The notes: generated by a model from the sequence alone, not told the origin. A stretch of 64,000 nucleotides of DNA from Deltaproteobacteria bacterium (GCA_947484175.1 CANKOI010000001.1:19752-83751), one strand, 5' to 3'; shown: positions 1-62,896, numbered from the stretch's first letter. Numbers and translations are program-made.

Positions 1-173
1 TCGGCTGGTGGATCGAGCCGAGCCCCGACCTCACCGAGCTGATGAACATCAGCGGCATGGGCGGGAGCGTGGGCTGGAACGGGCTCATCGTCGATGACGT
101 GAACGGCAGCCGCGTGGCCGAGGCCACCGAGCTCGAGTCGGCCGTCGTCTCGGCGAACTGCACCCTCGACTGA
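1..173 (+). CDS. C-terminal end of an unidentified protein (gene starts upstream of the window)
   Basis: Frame open from position 3 to TGA 171-173 (GWWIEPSPDLTELMNISGMGGSVGWNGLIVDDVNGSRVAEATELESAVVSANCTLD*). Third codon positions almost all G/C, as in confirmed genes. Absent from ORF track because it has no start in the window. Confidence 0.5.
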   Translation, partial: GWWIEPSPDLTELMNISGMGGSVGWNGLIVDDVNGSRVAEATELESAVVSANCTLD

Positions 174-1919: not shown

Positions 1920-3059
1920 TCAGAGCGCGATGGGCGCTTCGCCGAAGGCCTTCGCCTTGAGGGCGGGGTTCTTCTTCTGGAGCTCCTGATCCTGCTCGGT
2001 CACGAAGGCCACGAAGGCCGCCTTGTCGAGCAGCGGGAGCTTGGAGGCGACCACCACCACCTCGCCGGTGCAATCCTTCGGAAGGTGCCACTTGTACTGC
2101 GCCACGGCGGGCTGAGCGCGGGCGACCACTTGGTCCGGCCAAGTGCGGCCGGCGTTGGTGACCAGGGCCGTGTGCACTTCGGCGCGAGTGTCCTTCTTGC
2201 AGGTGGCCACCTTCTTCACGTAGAGGCCGTAGCTGAGCGTGCCATCCAACTGCTGGAGCTCGCGGTAACGCTCCGCCGCCATCGCATCGCTGTCCGCTTC
2301 GTGTTTGAGCGCGAGGAGTGTCGTGCGAGCGGTCTCCAACGACAGCGGCGGAAGCTTCGGGGCGAGAGTGCGGATACTCCCGGCAGCGGCATCGGCAGCG
2401 GCAACATCGAGGCCGCCTATCGAGCCCACCCCAGCGGCGTCTGCGAAGGCTCCGACCCAGTAGCTCGCCAGCTCCGCGTCACTCTCCGCGGAAAGCCCCT
2501 GCTCGAGCCGGGGGAGGGCGTCCTTCCCCTGATTGCGCGAAAGCGTTTCGAGCACCGCCTTGAACCGGCTGCGGTCGCTGCGCTGGGACACGAGCCCACC
2601 CTCAAGGATGGTGACCGCCGCGGGCGCCTGGCAACCCGCGAGCCCTGCGTACCAGCGCCCACCCCAGAATTTGTCGCCCAGGGCCGCCGCGGACTCGGCG
2701 AAGAAGGCCGGAACCGCGGCGTTGGTGCACTGCGCGCCGAGCCCGCTGATGAAGCTGCTCTTTTCGTCGGGCTGCAGCGTGTCCACCCAGGTGCGTACGG
2801 CCTCCCCCAGTCCGAGCTCCATCGCTTTGACTGCGGCGGCATCGGCACCGGGGCCGGCGATGATTCGTTTCCACGCATCAGGAGCCGCGGTGCGAGCGGC
2901 GGCGGCATCGCAGTTCGCCAACTCCAGCCACGCCTTGCCCGCGACGGCGGGGCTGGCTTCCACGAGCGCGGATAGGGTACCGGCGACACAGGGGGGGCCG
3001 ACGGGGGCTGCAGGTTTCTTGGCCGCGAGGGCGAGGTTTGCGGTGAGCAGGAAGAACAT
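1920..3059 (-). CDS. Secreted hypothetical protein
   Basis: ORF 1920..3182, but the signal peptide MFFLLTANLALAA starts at the ATG at 3059, which is preceded by AGGAG. No recognisable catalytic motif. Confidence 0.6.
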   Translation of the reverse strand: MFFLLTANLALAAKKPAAPVGPPCVAGTLSALVEASPAVAGKAWLELANCDAAAARTAAPDAWKRIIAGPGADAAAVKAMELGLGEAVRTWVDTLQPDEKSSFISGLGAQCTNAAVPAFFAESAAALGDKFWGGRWYAGLAGCQAPAAVTILEGGLVSQRSDRSRFKAVLETLSRNQGKDALPRLEQGLSAESDAELASYWVGAFADAAGVGSIGGLDVAAADAAAGSIRTLAPKLPPLSLETARTTLLALKHEADSDAMAAERYRELQQLDGTLSYGLYVKKVATCKKDTRAEVHTALVTNAGRTWPDQVVARAQPAVAQYKWHLPKDCTGEVVVVASKLPLLDKAAFVAFVTEQDQELQKKNPALKAKAFGEAPIAL

Positions 3060-32154: not shown

Positions 32155-32790
32155 TCAGCCGCCGCCCACCGCCTTCGCGCGCGCATCGAAGGCATCGATG
32201 AGCGCGGGCAACGTGCTGGAAGCGCCGAACTTGAGTACCGCGGCGGGCAGCCCTTCGGTGGCGCTCCACCATTGGTGGCCCACGATCGTGCCGGTGCCGT
32301 CGGCGCGCACGCTCCACCAGCCTGCGCTCGCACCCTGCCACTCCGACTCGTTTCGCCACGCGGCGATCGTCGCAGCCCAGGGCTCGGGCGCCACTCGCGT
32401 CCAGCAGCTCACAAGCTCGCTTCCCTCCAACTGCCCCTCCACCTTGGCCACGAGCTGGCGGTGGAGCGTGATCGCCCCGAACAGGAAGCCTACGTTGACC
32501 TGAAGGTACATGTGGGAGTCGTTCACCCGCTCCACTAGGTCGTAGCCGAACTGGCTGGGCATCCAGTCGTCTTGGGCTTCGGGGTGGCTCAGCACCTTTC
32601 GCCAGGCATCGACTCCCGCGGCGCTGCGTGAAACGAACCGGACGCCCACCACGGGCACGCCGTCGAGGATGGAGTCGCCAGTCACCACGGTCTTGCCCTT
32701 GCCTGGCAACGGCGTGCTCGGCTCGGGAAGCACCCGGTACAGGGGCGAAGCGCAGGCGGCGGCGAAAGCAGCGGCGATGACGACCAACAT
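32155..32790 (-). CDS. Hypothetical lipoprotein (possibly SRPBCC/START-like)
   Basis: In-frame ATG 32790 gives MLVVIAAAFAAAC lipobox. The upstream part of the track ORF is Arg-rich. Confidence 0.5.
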   Translation of the reverse strand: MLVVIAAAFAAACASPLYRVLPEPSTPLPGKGKTVVTGDSILDGVPVVGVRFVSRSAAGVDAWRKVLSHPEAQDDWMPSQFGYDLVERVNDSHMYLQVNVGFLFGAITLHRQLVAKVEGQLEGSELVSCWTRVAPEPWAATIAAWRNESEWQGASAGWWSVRADGTGTIVGHQWWSATEGLPAAVLKFGASSTLPALIDAFDARAKAVGGG

Positions 32791-32828: not shown

Positions 32829-33854
32829 ATGAACACCCCCGTCGTCCAGCGCACCATTCCGTTGCCCCCACCGCCCTGGCCCACCCTCGACCCCTTCCTC
32901 TTCTGCGTGCATCACGACGACACGTACCCCCGTGGCAACGAGAAGCTCGGACCGGCCGCATCTCTGGAGGGCAGGGCGCTCGGCCAAGATTTCGCGGAAA
33001 AGGACGGCTGGCGGATGTACCACGGCCAGCGCGTTCCCGGCTTTCCCAGCCACCCTCATCGCGGATTCGAAACCGTCACGCTCGCGCGGCGGGGGCTCAT
33101 TGATCACTCCGACTCCATGGGTGCCACGGCGCGATTCGGGGGCGGCGACGCGCAGTGGATGACGGCCGGCGGCGGTGTGGTGCACAGCGAGATGTTCCCG
33201 CTCGTGAATTCCGAGACCGGCAACCCCACCGAACTCTTCCAGATCTGGCTGAACCTGCCCTCGCGCAGCAAGCGGGTGAAACCCTATTTTGCGATGCTGT
33301 GGAACGACGAGATCCCCCACGTGGTCGTCGAAACCGGAGGGGCGTTCGCGGAGGCCCGAGTAGTGTCCGGACATCTCGGCGGCGCCCATGCCCCGGCCTG
33401 CCCTCCCGACAGTTGGGCCGCCGATCCTCAGAACGACGTGACGATCGCCACCCTGAAGCTCGAAGCCGGCGCGGCCTTCACGTTGCCCCCCGCGCTCGTT
33501 GGTGTTCAGCGGGTCCTCTACTTCTTCGCGGGCACCCAGCTCCGCATCAATGGCCATGCCGCACCGGCGCGCCATGCTCTCCAGCTCTTGGCCAGCGAAC
33601 CAGCGGAGCTGGTGGCGGCCGACGCCTGTGAGCTGCTGGTGCTCCAGGGGCGCCCCATCGGGGAGCCGGTCTGCCAGCACGGCCCGTTCGTCATGAACAC
33701 CCAGAGCGAGGTGCAGCAGGCGTTCGCCGACTACCGCCGCACCCAATTCGGCGGCTGGCCGTGGCCGTCGCCCGAGCCGGTCCACGCGGCCAGCGAAGGC
33801 CGCTTCGCCAAGCACGCCGACGGGCGGGTGGAGCGCCCGGCTAGCTTGGTTTGA
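32829..33854 (+). CDS. Pirin-family protein
   Basis: Cupin metal motif HPHRGFETVT; overall length and bicupin pattern. Confidence 0.85.
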   Translation: MNTPVVQRTIPLPPPPWPTLDPFLFCVHHDDTYPRGNEKLGPAASLEGRALGQDFAEKDGWRMYHGQRVPGFPSHPHRGFETVTLARRGLIDHSDSMGATARFGGGDAQWMTAGGGVVHSEMFPLVNSETGNPTELFQIWLNLPSRSKRVKPYFAMLWNDEIPHVVVETGGAFAEARVVSGHLGGAHAPACPPDSWAADPQNDVTIATLKLEAGAAFTLPPALVGVQRVLYFFAGTQLRINGHAAPARHALQLLASEPAELVAADACELLVLQGRPIGEPVCQHGPFVMNTQSEVQQAFADYRRTQFGGWPWPSPEPVHAASEGRFAKHADGRVERPASLV

Positions 33855-35778
33855 AGCCCGAGTAGACCACCCACCGCCAACAGTCACGGATCGCCCCCGT
33901 GGGGGAGATTTCAAAGGGGTGGATAGCGCGAACCTCCGCGGGACAGTGGTGGTAGAGGTCCCGGATCTGGTGCCGGTGCAACAGGGGGGTTTCCCAGGTG
34001 GCAATCCAATTGTCGATGTCCTCCCACTGCAAGTATTCTTGCTTGGAGAGGTTCACGAACCCCGCCTGTTCCAGCAGCGCGCGCACATCTTCGTCGTAGA
34101 GGTTGTTCACGAACAGGGGCTGTTTCTTCTTCACCACCTGAAACATCCAGGGTCCGTCTACCGCGCCGAAGGGCACCCACTGCCCCACCACGAACTGGCC
34201 ACCGGGCTTGAGCACGCGGAAGATCTCAGCCAGCGGTCGCTCGGGTTGCGGCAGCAGATGCAGCACCTCGCGGTTGCACACGCCATCGAAGCTCGCCTCC
34301 GGGAAAGGGATGTCGTACACATCCCCTAAGACGACCTCGTCGAGACGCTTTCGCGAGAGGGCCACCATCTCCGGCGTGAGGTCGAGCCCCACGATGCGCC
34401 CCACCTTGCCACGGAAGCTTGCCCCGACCACGCCCGAGCCGCAGCACACGTCGAGGAGCACGGCGTCGTCGGCGAGTTGGCTGGAGCCGCCGTGCATCGC
34501 GAGCAGCCCGGCGTTGGTGATCCAGTCGGCCGAGGTGTGCCAGGTCTTCGACCGGATGCCGAATTGCTGCCGGTAGATTTCTTTGTCGACGAGGTGCTCC
34601 ACACGCTCGTACCGAGCGCGCTCGCTGGCCCGCCGCGAAGCGAGGCGGGCACGCCCGGCTTCGACGGCCCGCCCCACGACCGCTGCGGCGTCCGCCGGGT
34701 TGGCGCGCAGCCACGCCGCGAGGGCGACCCCGACCGCCGACTCCACGGCGCGCCCCGCGGGGGGGTCTAGCAGGCGGGTCTTGGTCTGCCCTTCGAAGTG
34801 GGGGTCGGGCATGCGCACCGACAGCACCGCCACGAGGCCCTCGAGGGTGTCGTTCACCTCCAGCGGCTCGGTGCTGTCCAGCAGCCGGGCCTCACGGGCA
34901 TAGCGGGTGAGCGCCTGCCCCACGGCCGCGCGCAGGCCGTCGGCGTGGGCGCCCCCGAGCGGGGTGTACACGTGGTTCACGAAACCCTGAAAGTTCTCGG
35001 CGAAGGCTCGGGTCCACAACAACGCAGCAGACACCTCGTGAGGACCGACCGTCGCCGCCACCGACACCGGCCGGGCGTGCACCCGCTCTTGCCCTTCCGC
35101 CAGCCACGCCGCGAAGCCCGCGATGCCCTCGTCGGAGGAGAAGGTCACTTCGCCGGCGGGGCTCACCAGCCGACAGGACAATCCCGAGCTGAGCCAGCTC
35201 TGGCAGCGCAGCCAGCGCTCCACCGCACCCACGTCGGCGCGCGCGCGCCCGAACACCGCTGGGTCGGCCCGGAAGCGCACCGTAGTGCCCGAACGCGCGG
35301 CGTCTCCCACGCGCACAAAGGGCTCAACGGCGAGCCCTTGGGCCCAGCGGCCGCGCCAGCGACCGCCCTCGCGGCACACCTCCAACTCGAAGGTGGCGGA
35401 GAGCGCGTTCACGCAGGTGAGGCCCACGCCGTGGAGTCCGCCCGGCAGGCGGTAGGCGCCTTCCTGAAATTTCCCGCCCGCGTGCAGCTCCGTGACGAGC
35501 ACTTCCGGGATGCGCATTCCCGTGGGCGGGTACACCTCCACCGGAATGCCGCGCCCGTTGTCACTCACCGCCCACTCGTCGTCCAACCCGAGCACGACGT
35601 GCACTTCGGTGGCCTGCCCGGCGAGCGCTTCGTCGAGCGCGTTCTGGAGCACCTCGATCACCAGCTGCATCACGCCGTCGGGGCCGGTGGAGCCGACGTA
35701 CATCGCCGGCCTCATCCTCACCGCCGCCAGCCCCTTCAGAACAACGATGCTGTCTGCATCGTAGCGCATCTCACCCAT
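33841..35778 (-). CDS. Fusion protein: GyrB-type GHKL ATPase + transducer (43K fragment) fused to a class I SAM-dependent methyltransferase; no TOPRIM/C-terminal domain
   Basis: N-terminus YDADSIVVLKGLAAVRMRPAMYVG, IEVLQNALDEALAG, SDNGRGIP, LHAGGKF, GGLHGVG, FEGQTKTRL, colinear with E. coli GyrB residues about 5-390. From about residue 440, MTase motif I LLDVCCGSGVVG, LDLTPEMV, VLKPGGQFVV. Confidence 0.8.
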   Translation of the reverse strand: MGEMRYDADSIVVLKGLAAVRMRPAMYVGSTGPDGVMQLVIEVLQNALDEALAGQATEVHVVLGLDDEWAVSDNGRGIPVEVYPPTGMRIPEVLVTELHAGGKFQEGAYRLPGGLHGVGLTCVNALSATFELEVCREGGRWRGRWAQGLAVEPFVRVGDAARSGTTVRFRADPAVFGRARADVGAVERWLRCQSWLSSGLSCRLVSPAGEVTFSSDEGIAGFAAWLAEGQERVHARPVSVAATVGPHEVSAALLWTRAFAENFQGFVNHVYTPLGGAHADGLRAAVGQALTRYAREARLLDSTEPLEVNDTLEGLVAVLSVRMPDPHFEGQTKTRLLDPPAGRAVESAVGVALAAWLRANPADAAAVVGRAVEAGRARLASRRASERARYERVEHLVDKEIYRQQFGIRSKTWHTSADWITNAGLLAMHGGSSQLADDAVLLDVCCGSGVVGASFRGKVGRIVGLDLTPEMVALSRKRLDEVVLGDVYDIPFPEASFDGVCNREVLHLLPQPERPLAEIFRVLKPGGQFVVGQWVPFGAVDGPWMFQVVKKKQPLFVNNLYDEDVRALLEQAGFVNLSKQEYLQWEDIDNWIATWETPLLHRHQIRDLYHHCPAEVRAIHPFEISPTGAIRDCWRWVVYSGFKPS

Positions 35779-60160: not shown

Positions 60161-61276
60161 ATGGACCTCCTCATCCACCGCGACGAACTGGTGCGCGCTC
60201 TCGCCCGTGCTCAGGGGGTCGTTGAGAAACGGCCGACTCTCCAGATTCTGGGTGCCGTGCTGCTCCAAACCACCGCCTCGGGGCTGCGTGCCACGGCCAC
60301 CGACAAGGCGATGACCGTCATCGGGGACTACGCCGCCACGATTCGCACGGCGGGCGAAGTGGCCGTGGACGCGAACAACTTCTTCCAGATCGCCAAGGTT
60401 TTGGCGGGCGACATCGTCACGCTCACCTTGGTGGAGAACGGGCGCCTCGAAGTTCGTGCGGGTGCATCGGTGTTCAAGCTGGCCACCTTCAACACGGCGG
60501 ACTTTCCCGTTACGCCTGCGTTGGACCAGGCGCGCTCGCTTACGATGGCCGCCAGTGCCCTTCGTCGCGTGATCGATCGGGTCCATTTCGCGGTGGCGCC
60601 CGACGACAACCGCTACGGACTCAACGGCGCACACGTCGAAGACACCAGCGTGAACTCAGGGGCCGTCGTGCGCTTCGTGGGCACCGATGGCAACCGCCTC
60701 TGTTGGGCGCAGGCCCCGTATCAGGGGGAGCTGGGCATTGGGAAGAAGATGCTCCTCCCGCGAAAGGGTCTCGGTGAGATGCGGAAGCTGCTCGAAGGGT
60801 ACGAGGGTGATGTGCAGATCGCCTTCGGCGATCGTGCTGCGCTCATGCAATACCCCGGCATCCTTGTGCATCAGCGCCTGCTCGAAGCGGAGTTCCCGGA
60901 TTACCGGCAGGTGCTCCCCGCGTCGTTCAAGCGTCGGGTGGTGGTGGATCGCGACGCATTGCGCGAGGCCCTCCGCCGGGTGTCGATCCTCGCCACCGAC
61001 GCGACCAACTCCGTCCGTTTCCAGTTCACCGCCGATTCGCTTCAGCTCTCCGCTCGCAAGGCCGACGCGGGCGACGGCAAAGAAGACGTGCCCGTTGAGC
61101 TCCAAGGGGAGCCGATCAGTATGGGTTTTAACGCCCGTTTTATGGTGGAGGTGCTCTCCGTGATGGAGGGAAGCCGGGTGTCACTGGAGCTCGGCGAGGC
61201 GCTCGCGCCGTGCATCCTTCGTGATCTCGACGATGACAACGCCCTGTTTGTCGTGATGCCCGTCCGCCTCGACTGA
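60161..61276 (+). CDS. dnaN: DNA polymerase III beta sliding clamp
   Basis: 371 aa. MDLLIHRDELVRALARAQGVVEKRPTLQILGAVLL. Three-domain length. dnaA-dnaN-recF synteny. Confidence 0.95.
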   Translation: MDLLIHRDELVRALARAQGVVEKRPTLQILGAVLLQTTASGLRATATDKAMTVIGDYAATIRTAGEVAVDANNFFQIAKVLAGDIVTLTLVENGRLEVRAGASVFKLATFNTADFPVTPALDQARSLTMAASALRRVIDRVHFAVAPDDNRYGLNGAHVEDTSVNSGAVVRFVGTDGNRLCWAQAPYQGELGIGKKMLLPRKGLGEMRKLLEGYEGDVQIAFGDRAALMQYPGILVHQRLLEAEFPDYRQVLPASFKRRVVVDRDALREALRRVSILATDATNSVRFQFTADSLQLSARKADAGDGKEDVPVELQGEPISMGFNARFMVEVLSVMEGSRVSLELGEALAPCILRDLDDDNALFVVMPVRLD

Positions 61277-61285
61277 GGAGAGCTC

Positions 61286-62359
61286 ATGCGGGTGAAGCGG
61301 CTGATGGCTCAGGGTTTTCGGAACCTGAGCGCCGAGGTGCTCGACGTCGATGCACCCTTCGTGGCCTTTGTGGGCGCGAATGGGCAGGGCAAGACCAACT
61401 GGTTGGAGGCGGTGGCGGCCCTCGGCACGCTGCGTAGCTTCCGGACTCCGCGCACCTCGGAGCTGCTTCGTTTCGGCGAACGTGAGGCCATGGTGGAGGC
61501 AGCCGTCGACTCCGACGGAATGACGCGCCGATTCCGCGTGGCGTGGAGCGACGGCGAACGCTCTCTCCACCGAGAAGATCGGGTGATCGACGCGGTCACC
61601 TGGCTGCGCAGCCTTCGGGCCGCGTGGTTCGCTCCGGGCGACGTGGCTCCGATCCGGGGGGAACCCGGTCTCCGCCGCGCGATGCTCGACCGGGCCGCAC
61701 TCACGCTCGAGCCCAGCTACCTCTCCCTCGCTCAGCAGCACCGCCGTTGCCTCGAGCAGAAGGCAGCCCTCCTGCGCGGTGGGAACGCGGACGGACCCAC
61801 CCTCGATGCAGTCGACGCTCAACTCGCGGGGCTCAGTGTGCGGGTGGTGGCACGTCGTGTGGAGACGGTGAGCCGGATGTCGTCCCACTTCAAAAGTTTC
61901 TACGAAGAGTTCGGTGGGCCCGAAGAACCTGCGGTGCGCTACCGGCCCCACGTGTCGGGTGACGAAGAGTTCGTGCTGGAGAAGATGCTGGCCGCTCGGG
62001 TGCAGGAGCGCGAACAGCGTCGGGTTTTAGTGGGCCCTCACCGCGACGAGCTTGAGTTTTCCCTGTTGGGACGTCTCGTTCGTTCCTACGCATCTCAGGG
62101 TCAGGCGCGCTCCGTCGTGCTCGCGTGGAAGCTCGCCGAGCTCGCAGCCGCGCGCGTCGGCGACGATGCACCGCTCTTTCTCGTCGACGATGTCGGCAGC
62201 GAGCTCGACCCCGGTCGGACCGCCCGGTTGGTCTCTGTGGTTCGTTCCTTGGGCGCGCAAGTCTTCGTCACGACCACCGACCGCCGCTACCTGCCCTCCG
62301 ACCTGCGGGACTTCCGGGTCTTTGAGGTGGAGGCCGGCGTGGCGCGTCGGTCGACGTAG
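61286..62359 (+). CDS. recF: DNA replication and repair protein RecF
   Basis: GAGGAG upstream. Walker A GANGQGKTNWLEA. SMC-like signature GQARSVVLAWKLAE. Walker B LFLVDDVGSELD. Confidence 0.9.
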   Translation: MRVKRLMAQGFRNLSAEVLDVDAPFVAFVGANGQGKTNWLEAVAALGTLRSFRTPRTSELLRFGEREAMVEAAVDSDGMTRRFRVAWSDGERSLHREDRVIDAVTWLRSLRAAWFAPGDVAPIRGEPGLRRAMLDRAALTLEPSYLSLAQQHRRCLEQKAALLRGGNADGPTLDAVDAQLAGLSVRVVARRVETVSRMSSHFKSFYEEFGGPEEPAVRYRPHVSGDEEFVLEKMLAARVQEREQRRVLVGPHRDELEFSLLGRLVRSYASQGQARSVVLAWKLAELAAARVGDDAPLFLVDDVGSELDPGRTARLVSVVRSLGAQVFVTTTDRRYLPSDLRDFRVFEVEAGVARRST

Positions 62360-62362
62360 GGG

Positions 62363-62896
62363 CTACCGCTCCGGCAGCACAGCGAGCACATCGGCCACCT
62401 GGGCGTGGTCGCCCGCAAAGCCCGCGAGGTGCAGAAACAGCACCCGGCCATCGGGCTGTACCACCAGCTCACCGCCCTGTTGGAGCGGATCGCCCGCGGT
62501 GCCCGTTTGTTTGTGTCCGCTCGCCAATGAGCGCAGCCCGGCGAGCGTCGCGAGCGGGTGGAACATAGCGGCCAAGCCGCGCTTCGCGCCCAGCGCAGCG
62601 TAGGTTTGGCGGCTGGGGTCGGTGTACACGGGGGCGCTCACGCCCCCGTGCTCCTTGAAGTCCGCCGCCATCGCGGCCGTGCCGTTGCCGATGAAGGCGA
62701 GCTCCGCACCACGCTCCTGAAAACTTGATGCTGCCTGGCTGAAGTGAGCGACCTGCTCACGACAAAACGTTCACCCAAAGTGCCGCAGCCACACGAGCAC
62801 CCGGGTCTGGTCGGCCCAGAGCGAGCCCACCCTCACGGGGGTGCCGCTGAGGTCCAGTACGGTGAGCTGAGCGAGCGCAGTGGTGATTGGGTGCAT
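62363..62896 (-). CDS. Peroxiredoxin-like (AhpC/TSA_2, PRXL2/SelU-like) selenoprotein with in-frame UGA (Sec) at 62773..62771
   Basis: ATG 62896, 41 sense codons, TGA, then the same frame runs into track ORF 62363..62671. Context VLVWLRHFG-U-TFCREQVAHF matches the G-C-x-F-C-R redox motif. SECIS-like hairpin lies 10 nt downstream. Confidence 0.7.
62744..62760 (-). promoter_or_regulatory. Candidate bacterial SECIS hairpin
   Basis: mRNA 5'-GUGAGC-AGGUC-GCUCAC-3' starts 11 nt after the UGA. 6-bp perfect stem, and the 5-nt loop contains the GGUC also found in the E. coli fdhF SECIS apical loop. Three further pairs are possible beyond a 2x2 internal loop. Confidence 0.6.

Follow-up and report, generated by a model that had tools for sequence, protein, structure and literature searches.

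A small gene for a thioredoxin-fold redox protein beside recF, lying in the 64-kb stretch of deltaproteobacterial DNA analysed here in full (hereafter the window), almost certainly comprises 177 codons and carries an in-frame TGA encoding selenocysteine (Sec) at the active site, as judged by comparing its sequence with those of its relatives. With the evidence below weighed together, it is very probable that 62896..62363 on the minus strand is one 177-residue cytoplasmic oxidoreductase of the PRX-like2/SelL-related kind, in which UGA codon 42 is decoded as Sec.

An in-frame TGA splits the gene in current annotation

From ATG 62896 to TAG 62363 on the minus strand, the frame has a sole interruption, the TGA at 62773..62771, and its product consists of 41 residues, U and a further 135 residues. 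Another in-frame TGA is located 10 codons 5′ of ATG 62896, and as the intervening codons include neither ATG nor GTG nor TTG, ATG 62896 is the first possible start. An earlier, sequence-only reading of this DNA had noticed that the listed 102-aa ORF is only part of a gene whose frame, save for one TGA, continues upstream as far as ATG 62896; upon re-reading of the minus strand, its coordinates and sequence of the frame, the TGA and the hairpin all proved correct. The features of the gene are listed below.

62363..62896, minus strand: full predicted selenoprotein CDS, Met1..Arg177 plus TAG; PRX-like2/SelL-related thioredoxin-fold redox protein with predicted U42-x-x-C45
62894..62896, minus strand: ATG start codon, the first start 3′ of the upstream in-frame TGA, 41 codons before the Sec codon
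62771..62773, minus strand: UGA codon 42, predicted Sec replacing the first (attacking) Cys of CxxC, from alignment to Cys homologues
62762..62764, minus strand: Cys45 codon (UGU), predicted resolving Cys of UxxC; nearly invariant, Ala only in the Desulfobacterales UxxA forms
62363..62671, minus strand: 102-aa ORF reported by gene callers, a C-terminal fragment from internal Met76 (ORF listing; public protein P0001, 102 aa)
62771..62896, minus strand: N-terminal fragment of 41 codons (ORF listing), annotated on some contigs as a 41-aa gene of its own
62744..62760, minus strand: bSECIS-type hairpin GUGAGC/AGGUC/GCUCAC, 6-bp stem, UGA-to-loop distance 16 nt, dG −8.0 kcal/mol

Mis-annotation of the gene, which had been anticipated, is indeed found in the public records wherever the gene occurs: it appears there as fragments of 99-140 aa that are sometimes accompanied by a separate 41-aa gene. 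The NCBI entries MDX2010627.1 (139 aa) and MCU0699922.1 (118 aa) both lack the N-terminal part, and the 41-aa head was called as a gene of its own on contigs L002, L005 and L006. The active site is entirely missing from the 102-aa fragment, and correcting the annotation would restore a complete redox enzyme together with its active site.

The TGA occupies the position of the first redox cysteine

A search of 5.8 billion proteins returned full-length relatives of ~181 aa with 46-51% identity, all carrying the motif RHFG-C-x-F-C-REQV; the closest relatives, with 55-70% identity, were all called as fragments of 99-140 aa, and two fragment relatives begin with “MFCREQVA”, one codon past the TGA position. 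As the Cys homologues read RHFGCxFCREQV, the TGA substitutes exactly for the first Cys. The UxxC motif proposed by the sequence-only reading, in which the TGA stands for the first Cys of CxxC, agrees with this alignment as well as with the one to the catalytic CxxC of PRXL2B.

Homologous loci were surveyed with one genome per GTDB species, and the 69 loci returned were translated in frame. At the homologous codon, 35 loci had TGA and 32 had a Cys codon (TGC or TGT), giving 36 TGA forms out of 68 when the window is included, and neither TAA nor TAG was found at this codon among the 68 loci (window included). Aligning the gene with its Cys homologues, a check that had been suggested, matched TGA codon 42 to the Cys that is invariant in the 32 Cys-form loci and the database homologues. 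In every TGA locus the TGA is the lone in-frame stop, with the exception of L054, whose tblastn span had a second. Apart from this one locus, the frames are intact on both sides of the TGA, and the disrupted downstream frames that had been named as the mark of a true pseudogene did not occur; nor were any frameshifts seen among the TGA-form loci.

A start codon is present 34-46 codons 5′ of the TGA in 36/36 TGA forms (32 with ATG, three with TTG and one with GTG); this register agrees with that of the Cys forms (~39 codons), and the products are 166-191 aa long. Mean identity to the window protein was 45% before and 41% after the TGA in the Sec forms, and 48% before and 42% after the redox Cys in the full-length Cys forms. 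This comparable conservation indicates that selection at the protein level constrains the first 41 codons as much as the remainder. L001-L006, six contigs representing strains of the same organism and differing by one SNP, all retain the TGA as well. Elsewhere in the window, TGA serves as the ordinary terminator of 24 of the 35 confident genes, dnaN among them, and it likewise ends many of the homologues. TGA being a usual stop, the genetic code is the standard one, and therefore a recoding of codon 42 must be local.

The TGA forms were found in Myxococcota (Myxococcaceae, Archangium, Nannocystaceae and “Myxococcales”), in unclassified “Deltaproteobacteria/Proteobacteria” MAGs and in Desulfobacterales, and the Cys forms mostly in Dormibacterota and Acidobacteriota, with some in Polyangiaceae. 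In a neighbour-joining (NJ) tree, the Cys forms L010, L045, L052, L065 and L068 are nested among Sec clades; L010 is placed between L050 and L058, and Cys forms of Polyangiaceae stand beside Sec forms. Such interspersion of Sec and Cys forms is consistent with several switches within Myxococcota. The Desulfobacterales/Desulfatiglandaceae MAGs L062, L064, L066, L067, L069 and L070 read RHFG-U-LFA-[RKQ]-QQ, that is UxxA, ~43 codons into the gene. The Ala in place of the resolving Cys suggests a one-selenol mechanism that would need an external thiol.

A hairpin downstream of the UGA is conserved and specific to the Sec forms

In the window, the hairpin GUGAGC-AGGUC-GCUCAC starts 10 nt after the UGA, as the sequence-only reading had placed it (62760..62744). 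Its 5′ arm and loop coincide with codons R46-E47-Q48-V49, and its 3′ arm with A50-H51 (GCU CAC). We compared it with the published bSECIS criteria (PMC13188914, Fig. 2), namely a loop of 3-9 nt, an upper stem of 4-16 bp, a G in the first two loop positions, a UGA-loop spacing of 16-37 nt and an MFE of ≤ −7.5 kcal/mol. The window hairpin meets them with its 5-nt AGGUC loop and 6-bp stem, and it stands at the edge of two limits, with a spacing of 16 nt (range 16-37) and an energy of −8.0 kcal/mol (threshold −7.5). No bacterial SECIS or other relevant Rfam family was matched at either gathering or permissive thresholds. The lower-stem extension of G-C, U-A and G-U pairs described earlier does form in the MFE fold of the window, but it lacks conservation, being only 18-50% paired in the relatives.

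The 66-nt local fold of the window is no better than those of shuffled sequences (z=−0.38), so it is only in comparative data that the hairpin exceeds chance. Averaged over 57-nt segments, the MFE likewise hardly differs between Sec forms (−19.1 kcal/mol) and Cys forms (−19.3 kcal/mol). In coding DNA of 69% GC, the thermodynamics of single sequences is uninformative, and tests based on a fixed register and on the bSECIS criteria were therefore used instead. With the 5′ arm set at nt +14..19, the loop at +20..24 and the 3′ arm at +25..30, and at least 5 contiguous pairs required, the hairpin was found in 23 of the 36 Sec forms versus none of the 32 Cys forms (Fisher p=2.9e-9, phylogenetic relatedness being ignored). 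The bSECIS criteria were passed by 33/36 Sec forms versus 1/32 Cys forms (p=1.6e-14, with relatedness again ignored). Both groups have the sequence CGY GAG CAG GUN of the 5′ arm and loop, because it encodes the conserved Arg-Glu-Gln-Val; what distinguishes them is the 3′ arm, where Sec forms read GCU CRC (Ala-His/Arg) and Cys forms GCC GAG (Ala-Glu).

Among the 23 sequences with the window-type hairpin, 97.7% of the stem cells are paired, and two of the six pairs are compensatory: one is C-G in 12 sequences, G-C in five and U-A in three, and the other is G-C in 16 and C-G in five. The observed covariation score was reached by 0 of 500 shuffles, and pairing falls to 19-68% when the register is shifted by 1-3 nt. 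In particular, a synonymous position, the third of the Arg46 codon, changes in concert with the middle base of codon 51: Arg46 CGU goes with codon 51 CAC or CAA, giving U-A in three sequences from two clades, and CGC goes with CGN or UGC, giving C-G in twelve sequences, with one U.G and one G.U as intermediates. In the Desulfobacterales both arms are altered (GGCAGC/GCUGCC), and the pairing, the AGGUN loop and the register are kept despite the peptide ARQQVAAL. Thus, conservation of the hairpin in Sec-containing orthologues, on which the sequence-only reading had made its proposal depend, is borne out by the pairing and the compensatory changes, together with its rarity in the Cys forms. These observations support the view that the hairpin is a minimal fdhF-like bSECIS overlaid on the conserved REQV codons.

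The resemblance to the E. coli fdhF SECIS was checked against the actual gene, and the heptamer GCAGGUC is common to both. Both elements are located directly 3′ of the UGA (codon 140 in fdhF) within the coding sequence, and the window hairpin fits the bSECIS consensus; counted from the U of UGA, GGUC lies at nt 22 in fdhF and at nt 21 in the window. The fdhF helix, however, is longer and has a bulged U, whereas the window hairpin has six perfect base pairs, a 5-nt loop and no bulge, and its sequence is otherwise unrelated.

Thirteen other Sec forms have a hairpin 9 nt further downstream, with the loop from ~+29 and a stem of 5-8 bp (7-8 bp except in L049). These are L013, L026, L027, L039 and L046 of Myxococcaceae/Archangium, and L049, L050, L056, L058-L061 and L074 of Myxococcales. 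Their loops are GUU/GGUUC, AGUU(G) or AGGU, and their stems show compensatory changes as well (GCCGCGC/GCGCGGC and GCCGUGC/GCACGGC). The two placements indicate that SECIS elements occupy at least two positions in the family, and the hairpin type tracks the protein clade in the NJ tree.

Relationship to known redox families and selenoproteins

In profile searches, for which U was read as C, the window protein matched Pfam AhpC-TSA_2 (PF13911) over residues 53-157 with E=3.8e-19 (69.6 bits versus a gathering threshold of 27), and matched AhpC-TSA (PF00578; 1.5e-9, 38 bits) and Redoxin more weakly. Its sole NCBIfam match was NF040769, “SelL-related redox protein” (SelL_rel_redox), with E=6.9e-34 over residues 9-173 (positions 4-172/173). 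The match spans the whole profile; scored with Cys at the U position, it reaches 117 bits, 3 below the curated cut-off of 120 bits, so that the naming threshold is missed. The same profile was matched by 35/35 of the Sec and Cys relatives tested, with a best E of 6.9e-44. On these profile matches, homology of the window protein to the NF040769 family is certain.

Among solved structures, the closest relative by sequence is human prostamide/prostaglandin F synthase PRXL2B (PDB 9us9, E=3.4e-15), whose catalytic RRFG-C-VVC-R is aligned to RHFG-U-TFC-R; a further entry, PDB 9usa, is titled as the C44S/C47S mutant. The AlphaFold (AF2) model of a Cys homologue, P0003, which is 51% identical to the window protein, had a pLDDT of 89.8 and a pTM of 0.87, and its C40 is located between strand 30-34 and helix 41-51. 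In this homologue model, the redox Cys position is the canonical active site of the thioredoxin fold, at the helix N-terminus. When the P0003 model was searched with Foldseek, PGFS/PRXL2B ranked first (TM 0.79-0.86), followed by the PrxQ/BCP peroxiredoxins. The PF13911/cd02970 PRX-like2 domain, to which the window protein belongs, also takes in eukaryotic PRXL2A/B/C and SelU. Eukaryotic SelL differs from the window protein in its motif: it is UxxU, reportedly as described by Shchedrina et al. in 2007, and the window protein is UxxC.

That the family is not new, as the sequence-only reading had remarked, is evident from NF040769 and from two reviews (PMC9312934; PMC13188914). In both reviews, the pfam13911/cd02970 “AhpC/TSA family protein” selenoprotein is listed as UxxS only (Table 1 of each), and a different motif is taken to mean a different subfamily. 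The catalogued UxxS proteins (CAB1081847.1 and MDX2448127.1) have PF13911 and Sec as the first residue of the redox motif in common with the window clade, which is set apart from them by the listed motif, being UxxC, or UxxA in Desulfobacterales. The GOS study described the UxxC families Prx-like 1/2/3 and named SelL a Prx-like protein (PMC2398784). “Prx-like thiol:disulfide oxidoreductase” selenoproteins (pfam00578, UxxC/UxxU) are known from Geobacter, Syntrophus and Desulfotalea (PMC1794560; PMC2398784). Like the window protein, they are bacterial thioredoxin-fold UxxC proteins with abundant Cys homologues and are typical of Deltaproteobacteria; they are assigned to pfam00578, whereas the window protein scores 38 bits with PF00578 and 70 bits with PF13911. 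Because PF00578 is the weaker match, the window clade is probably a sister subfamily of the pfam00578 Prx-like selenoproteins, set apart by its profile scores. Deltaproteobacteria are rich in selenoproteins, with 11 in the myxobacterium Anaeromyxobacter, and Cys-to-Sec conversion is a common trend in UxxC redox families (PMC1794560).

The kind of gene is therefore known from the SelL-related and Prx-like selenoprotein families in NCBIfam, the reviews and the GOS data. Prx-like UxxC selenoproteins, their mis-annotation and the interconversion of Cys and Sec are well documented, and a specialist would not be surprised. Table 1 of PMC9312934 and that of PMC13188914 do not explicitly include a UxxC/UxxA Sec clade of PF13911, which differs from their entries by the listed motif. 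As a tentative joint proposal, which we rate as somewhat less probable than its negation, the Myxococcota/Desulfobacterales clade would be an uncatalogued PF13911/SelL-related Sec subfamily (UxxC with a UxxA offshoot) and would also have taken an unusual route, with the SECIS assembled through changes in just the two codons that come after the pre-existing, functionally fixed R-E-Q-V codons, at least two alternative hairpin positions in sister clades, and repeated switching between Sec and Cys. General knowledge of selenoproteins is unchanged by the gene, which is a neat example of SECIS evolution inside a coding sequence and useful for annotation. Its 36 Sec and 32 Cys forms constitute a clean natural experiment on a SECIS hairpin overlaid on a constrained coding sequence, and it marks the organism and ~35 other uncultured Myxococcota/deltaproteobacterial species as probable Sec users.

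Alternative explanations for the TGA and the hairpin

If the TGA were a nonsense mutation, the gene would be a pseudogene or truly truncated, and only fragments or nothing would be made from it. This is how gene callers and public records treat it, and the unremarkable energy of the single-sequence hairpin and the absence of Sec-machinery matches from the mere ~74 kb of the organism's genome that was searched would both fit. Decay does not account, however, for a TGA at the same codon in 36 species-level genomes, never replaced by TAA or TAG and free of frameshifts, nor for starts that are in register and 41 upstream codons that are conserved as in the intact Cys forms. A TGA-specific hairpin with compensatory changes is likewise unexpected in a decaying gene, and a 102-aa fragment would be left without the whole active site. 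We consider a pseudogene highly unlikely on these grounds. The conservation on both sides of the TGA suits any read-through mechanism, and would thus also be found if a full-length product were made without selenium, through a near-cognate or suppressor tRNA for Cys or Trp or through a reassigned code. Reassignment is contradicted by the TGA stops of 24/35 confident window genes and of many homologues. TGA is confined to the redox Cys and accompanied by a hairpin that satisfies the bSECIS criteria and presents a G-G/U loop 16-26 nt downstream. This pattern characterises SelB-dependent recoding, as opposed to leaky termination, and makes selenium-free read-through very unlikely.

Another explanation concerns the hairpin itself, which could be a by-product of the peptide CREQVAH/R and not a selected RNA element, any Sec insertion then depending on something else. 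The equal presence of the 5′ arm and loop (CGY GAG CAG GUN) in the Cys forms and the non-significant z-score are what one would see in that case. The complementary 3′ arm, by contrast, is confined to the TGA forms (0/32 Cys forms), and the synonymous Arg46 site (CGU/CGC) covaries with codon 51 (CAC/CAA or CGN). Moreover, the Desulfobacterales changed both arms and yet kept the pairing and the loop with a different peptide, and the Sec clades without the window-type hairpin carry another one 9 nt further on. Taken together, these patterns render a mere by-product extremely unlikely.

Proposed mechanism of selenocysteine insertion and catalysis

For the preferred reading, that UGA codon 42 is decoded as Sec, we infer the insertion itself, the binding of SelB, the substrate and the reductant as follows. 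During translation, the 17-nt hairpin 10 nt past the UGA would be bound by SelB-GTP-Sec-tRNA(Sec), and this complex would deliver Sec to the A site in place of release factor 2. The signal would be built on the coding sequence, with the R-E-Q-V codons serving as its 5′ arm and loop and the Ala-His codons GCU CAC as its 3′ arm. In the folded protein, Sec42, in the classical CxxC position where the first active-site helix begins, may attack an oxidised substrate, such as a disulfide, a sulfenate or an (endo)peroxide, and the resulting Sec42-Cys45 selenenylsulfide could then be re-reduced by a thioredoxin- or glutathione-type system.

Genome context and search for the Sec machinery

The gene converges on recF (61286..62359), which itself comes after dnaN (60161..61276) and dnaA. 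Among the Sec forms no conserved neighbour or operon partner was found, synteny being confined to the Cys clade of closely related Dormibacterota, and the gene is accordingly regarded as standing alone. A promoter and terminator scan gave no σ70-like match, and the lone terminator-like match falls inside the coding region.

By tblastn with E. coli SelA, SelB and SelD, no selA, selB or selD was found in the 64-kb window plus ~10 kb of flanks from this organism, nor were SelA, SelB or SelD found in ~500 kb of homologue loci. ARAGORN returned no tRNA-Sec in the 64-kb window, which has no tRNA at all, or in 39 homologue loci. One candidate, a 98-nt ‘tRNA-Arg(ccg)’ called by ARAGORN at L057 4028..4125, adjacent to the Sec-form gene of that locus, was rejected as a false positive, since permissive Rfam searching shows a GC-rich repeated hairpin there, made of GGGCUCCGG units.

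The window was also inspected for a second selenoprotein, and the other in-frame TGAs with flanking coding signal were dismissed as gene junctions or non-coding frames. On the minus strand, a single TGA at 1920..1922 separates same-frame genes of 420 aa and 576 aa, and another at 32155..32157 separates same-frame genes of 268 aa and 492 aa, which public calls keep separate. With no redox motif at either TGA, and with the genes of the latter pair called separately, both were read as ordinary gene junctions.

Two further observations were made on other genes of the window. A 645-aa protein encoded at 33841..35778 (minus strand) has HATPase_c/DNA_gyraseB and several SAM-methyltransferase Pfam matches, and appears as an unusual GyrB-like/methyltransferase fusion. 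From ~63100 onward on the plus strand (L001 5833..9785), a divergent cluster upstream of the gene encodes PSD/PSCyt-domain (DUF1592-type) and HXXSHH (DUF1552-type) proteins, and a DUF1501 protein is encoded elsewhere in the window; the DUF1592, DUF1552 and DUF1501 types are Planctomycete-style families, and the genome in which they occur here is 69% GC and presumably myxobacterial.
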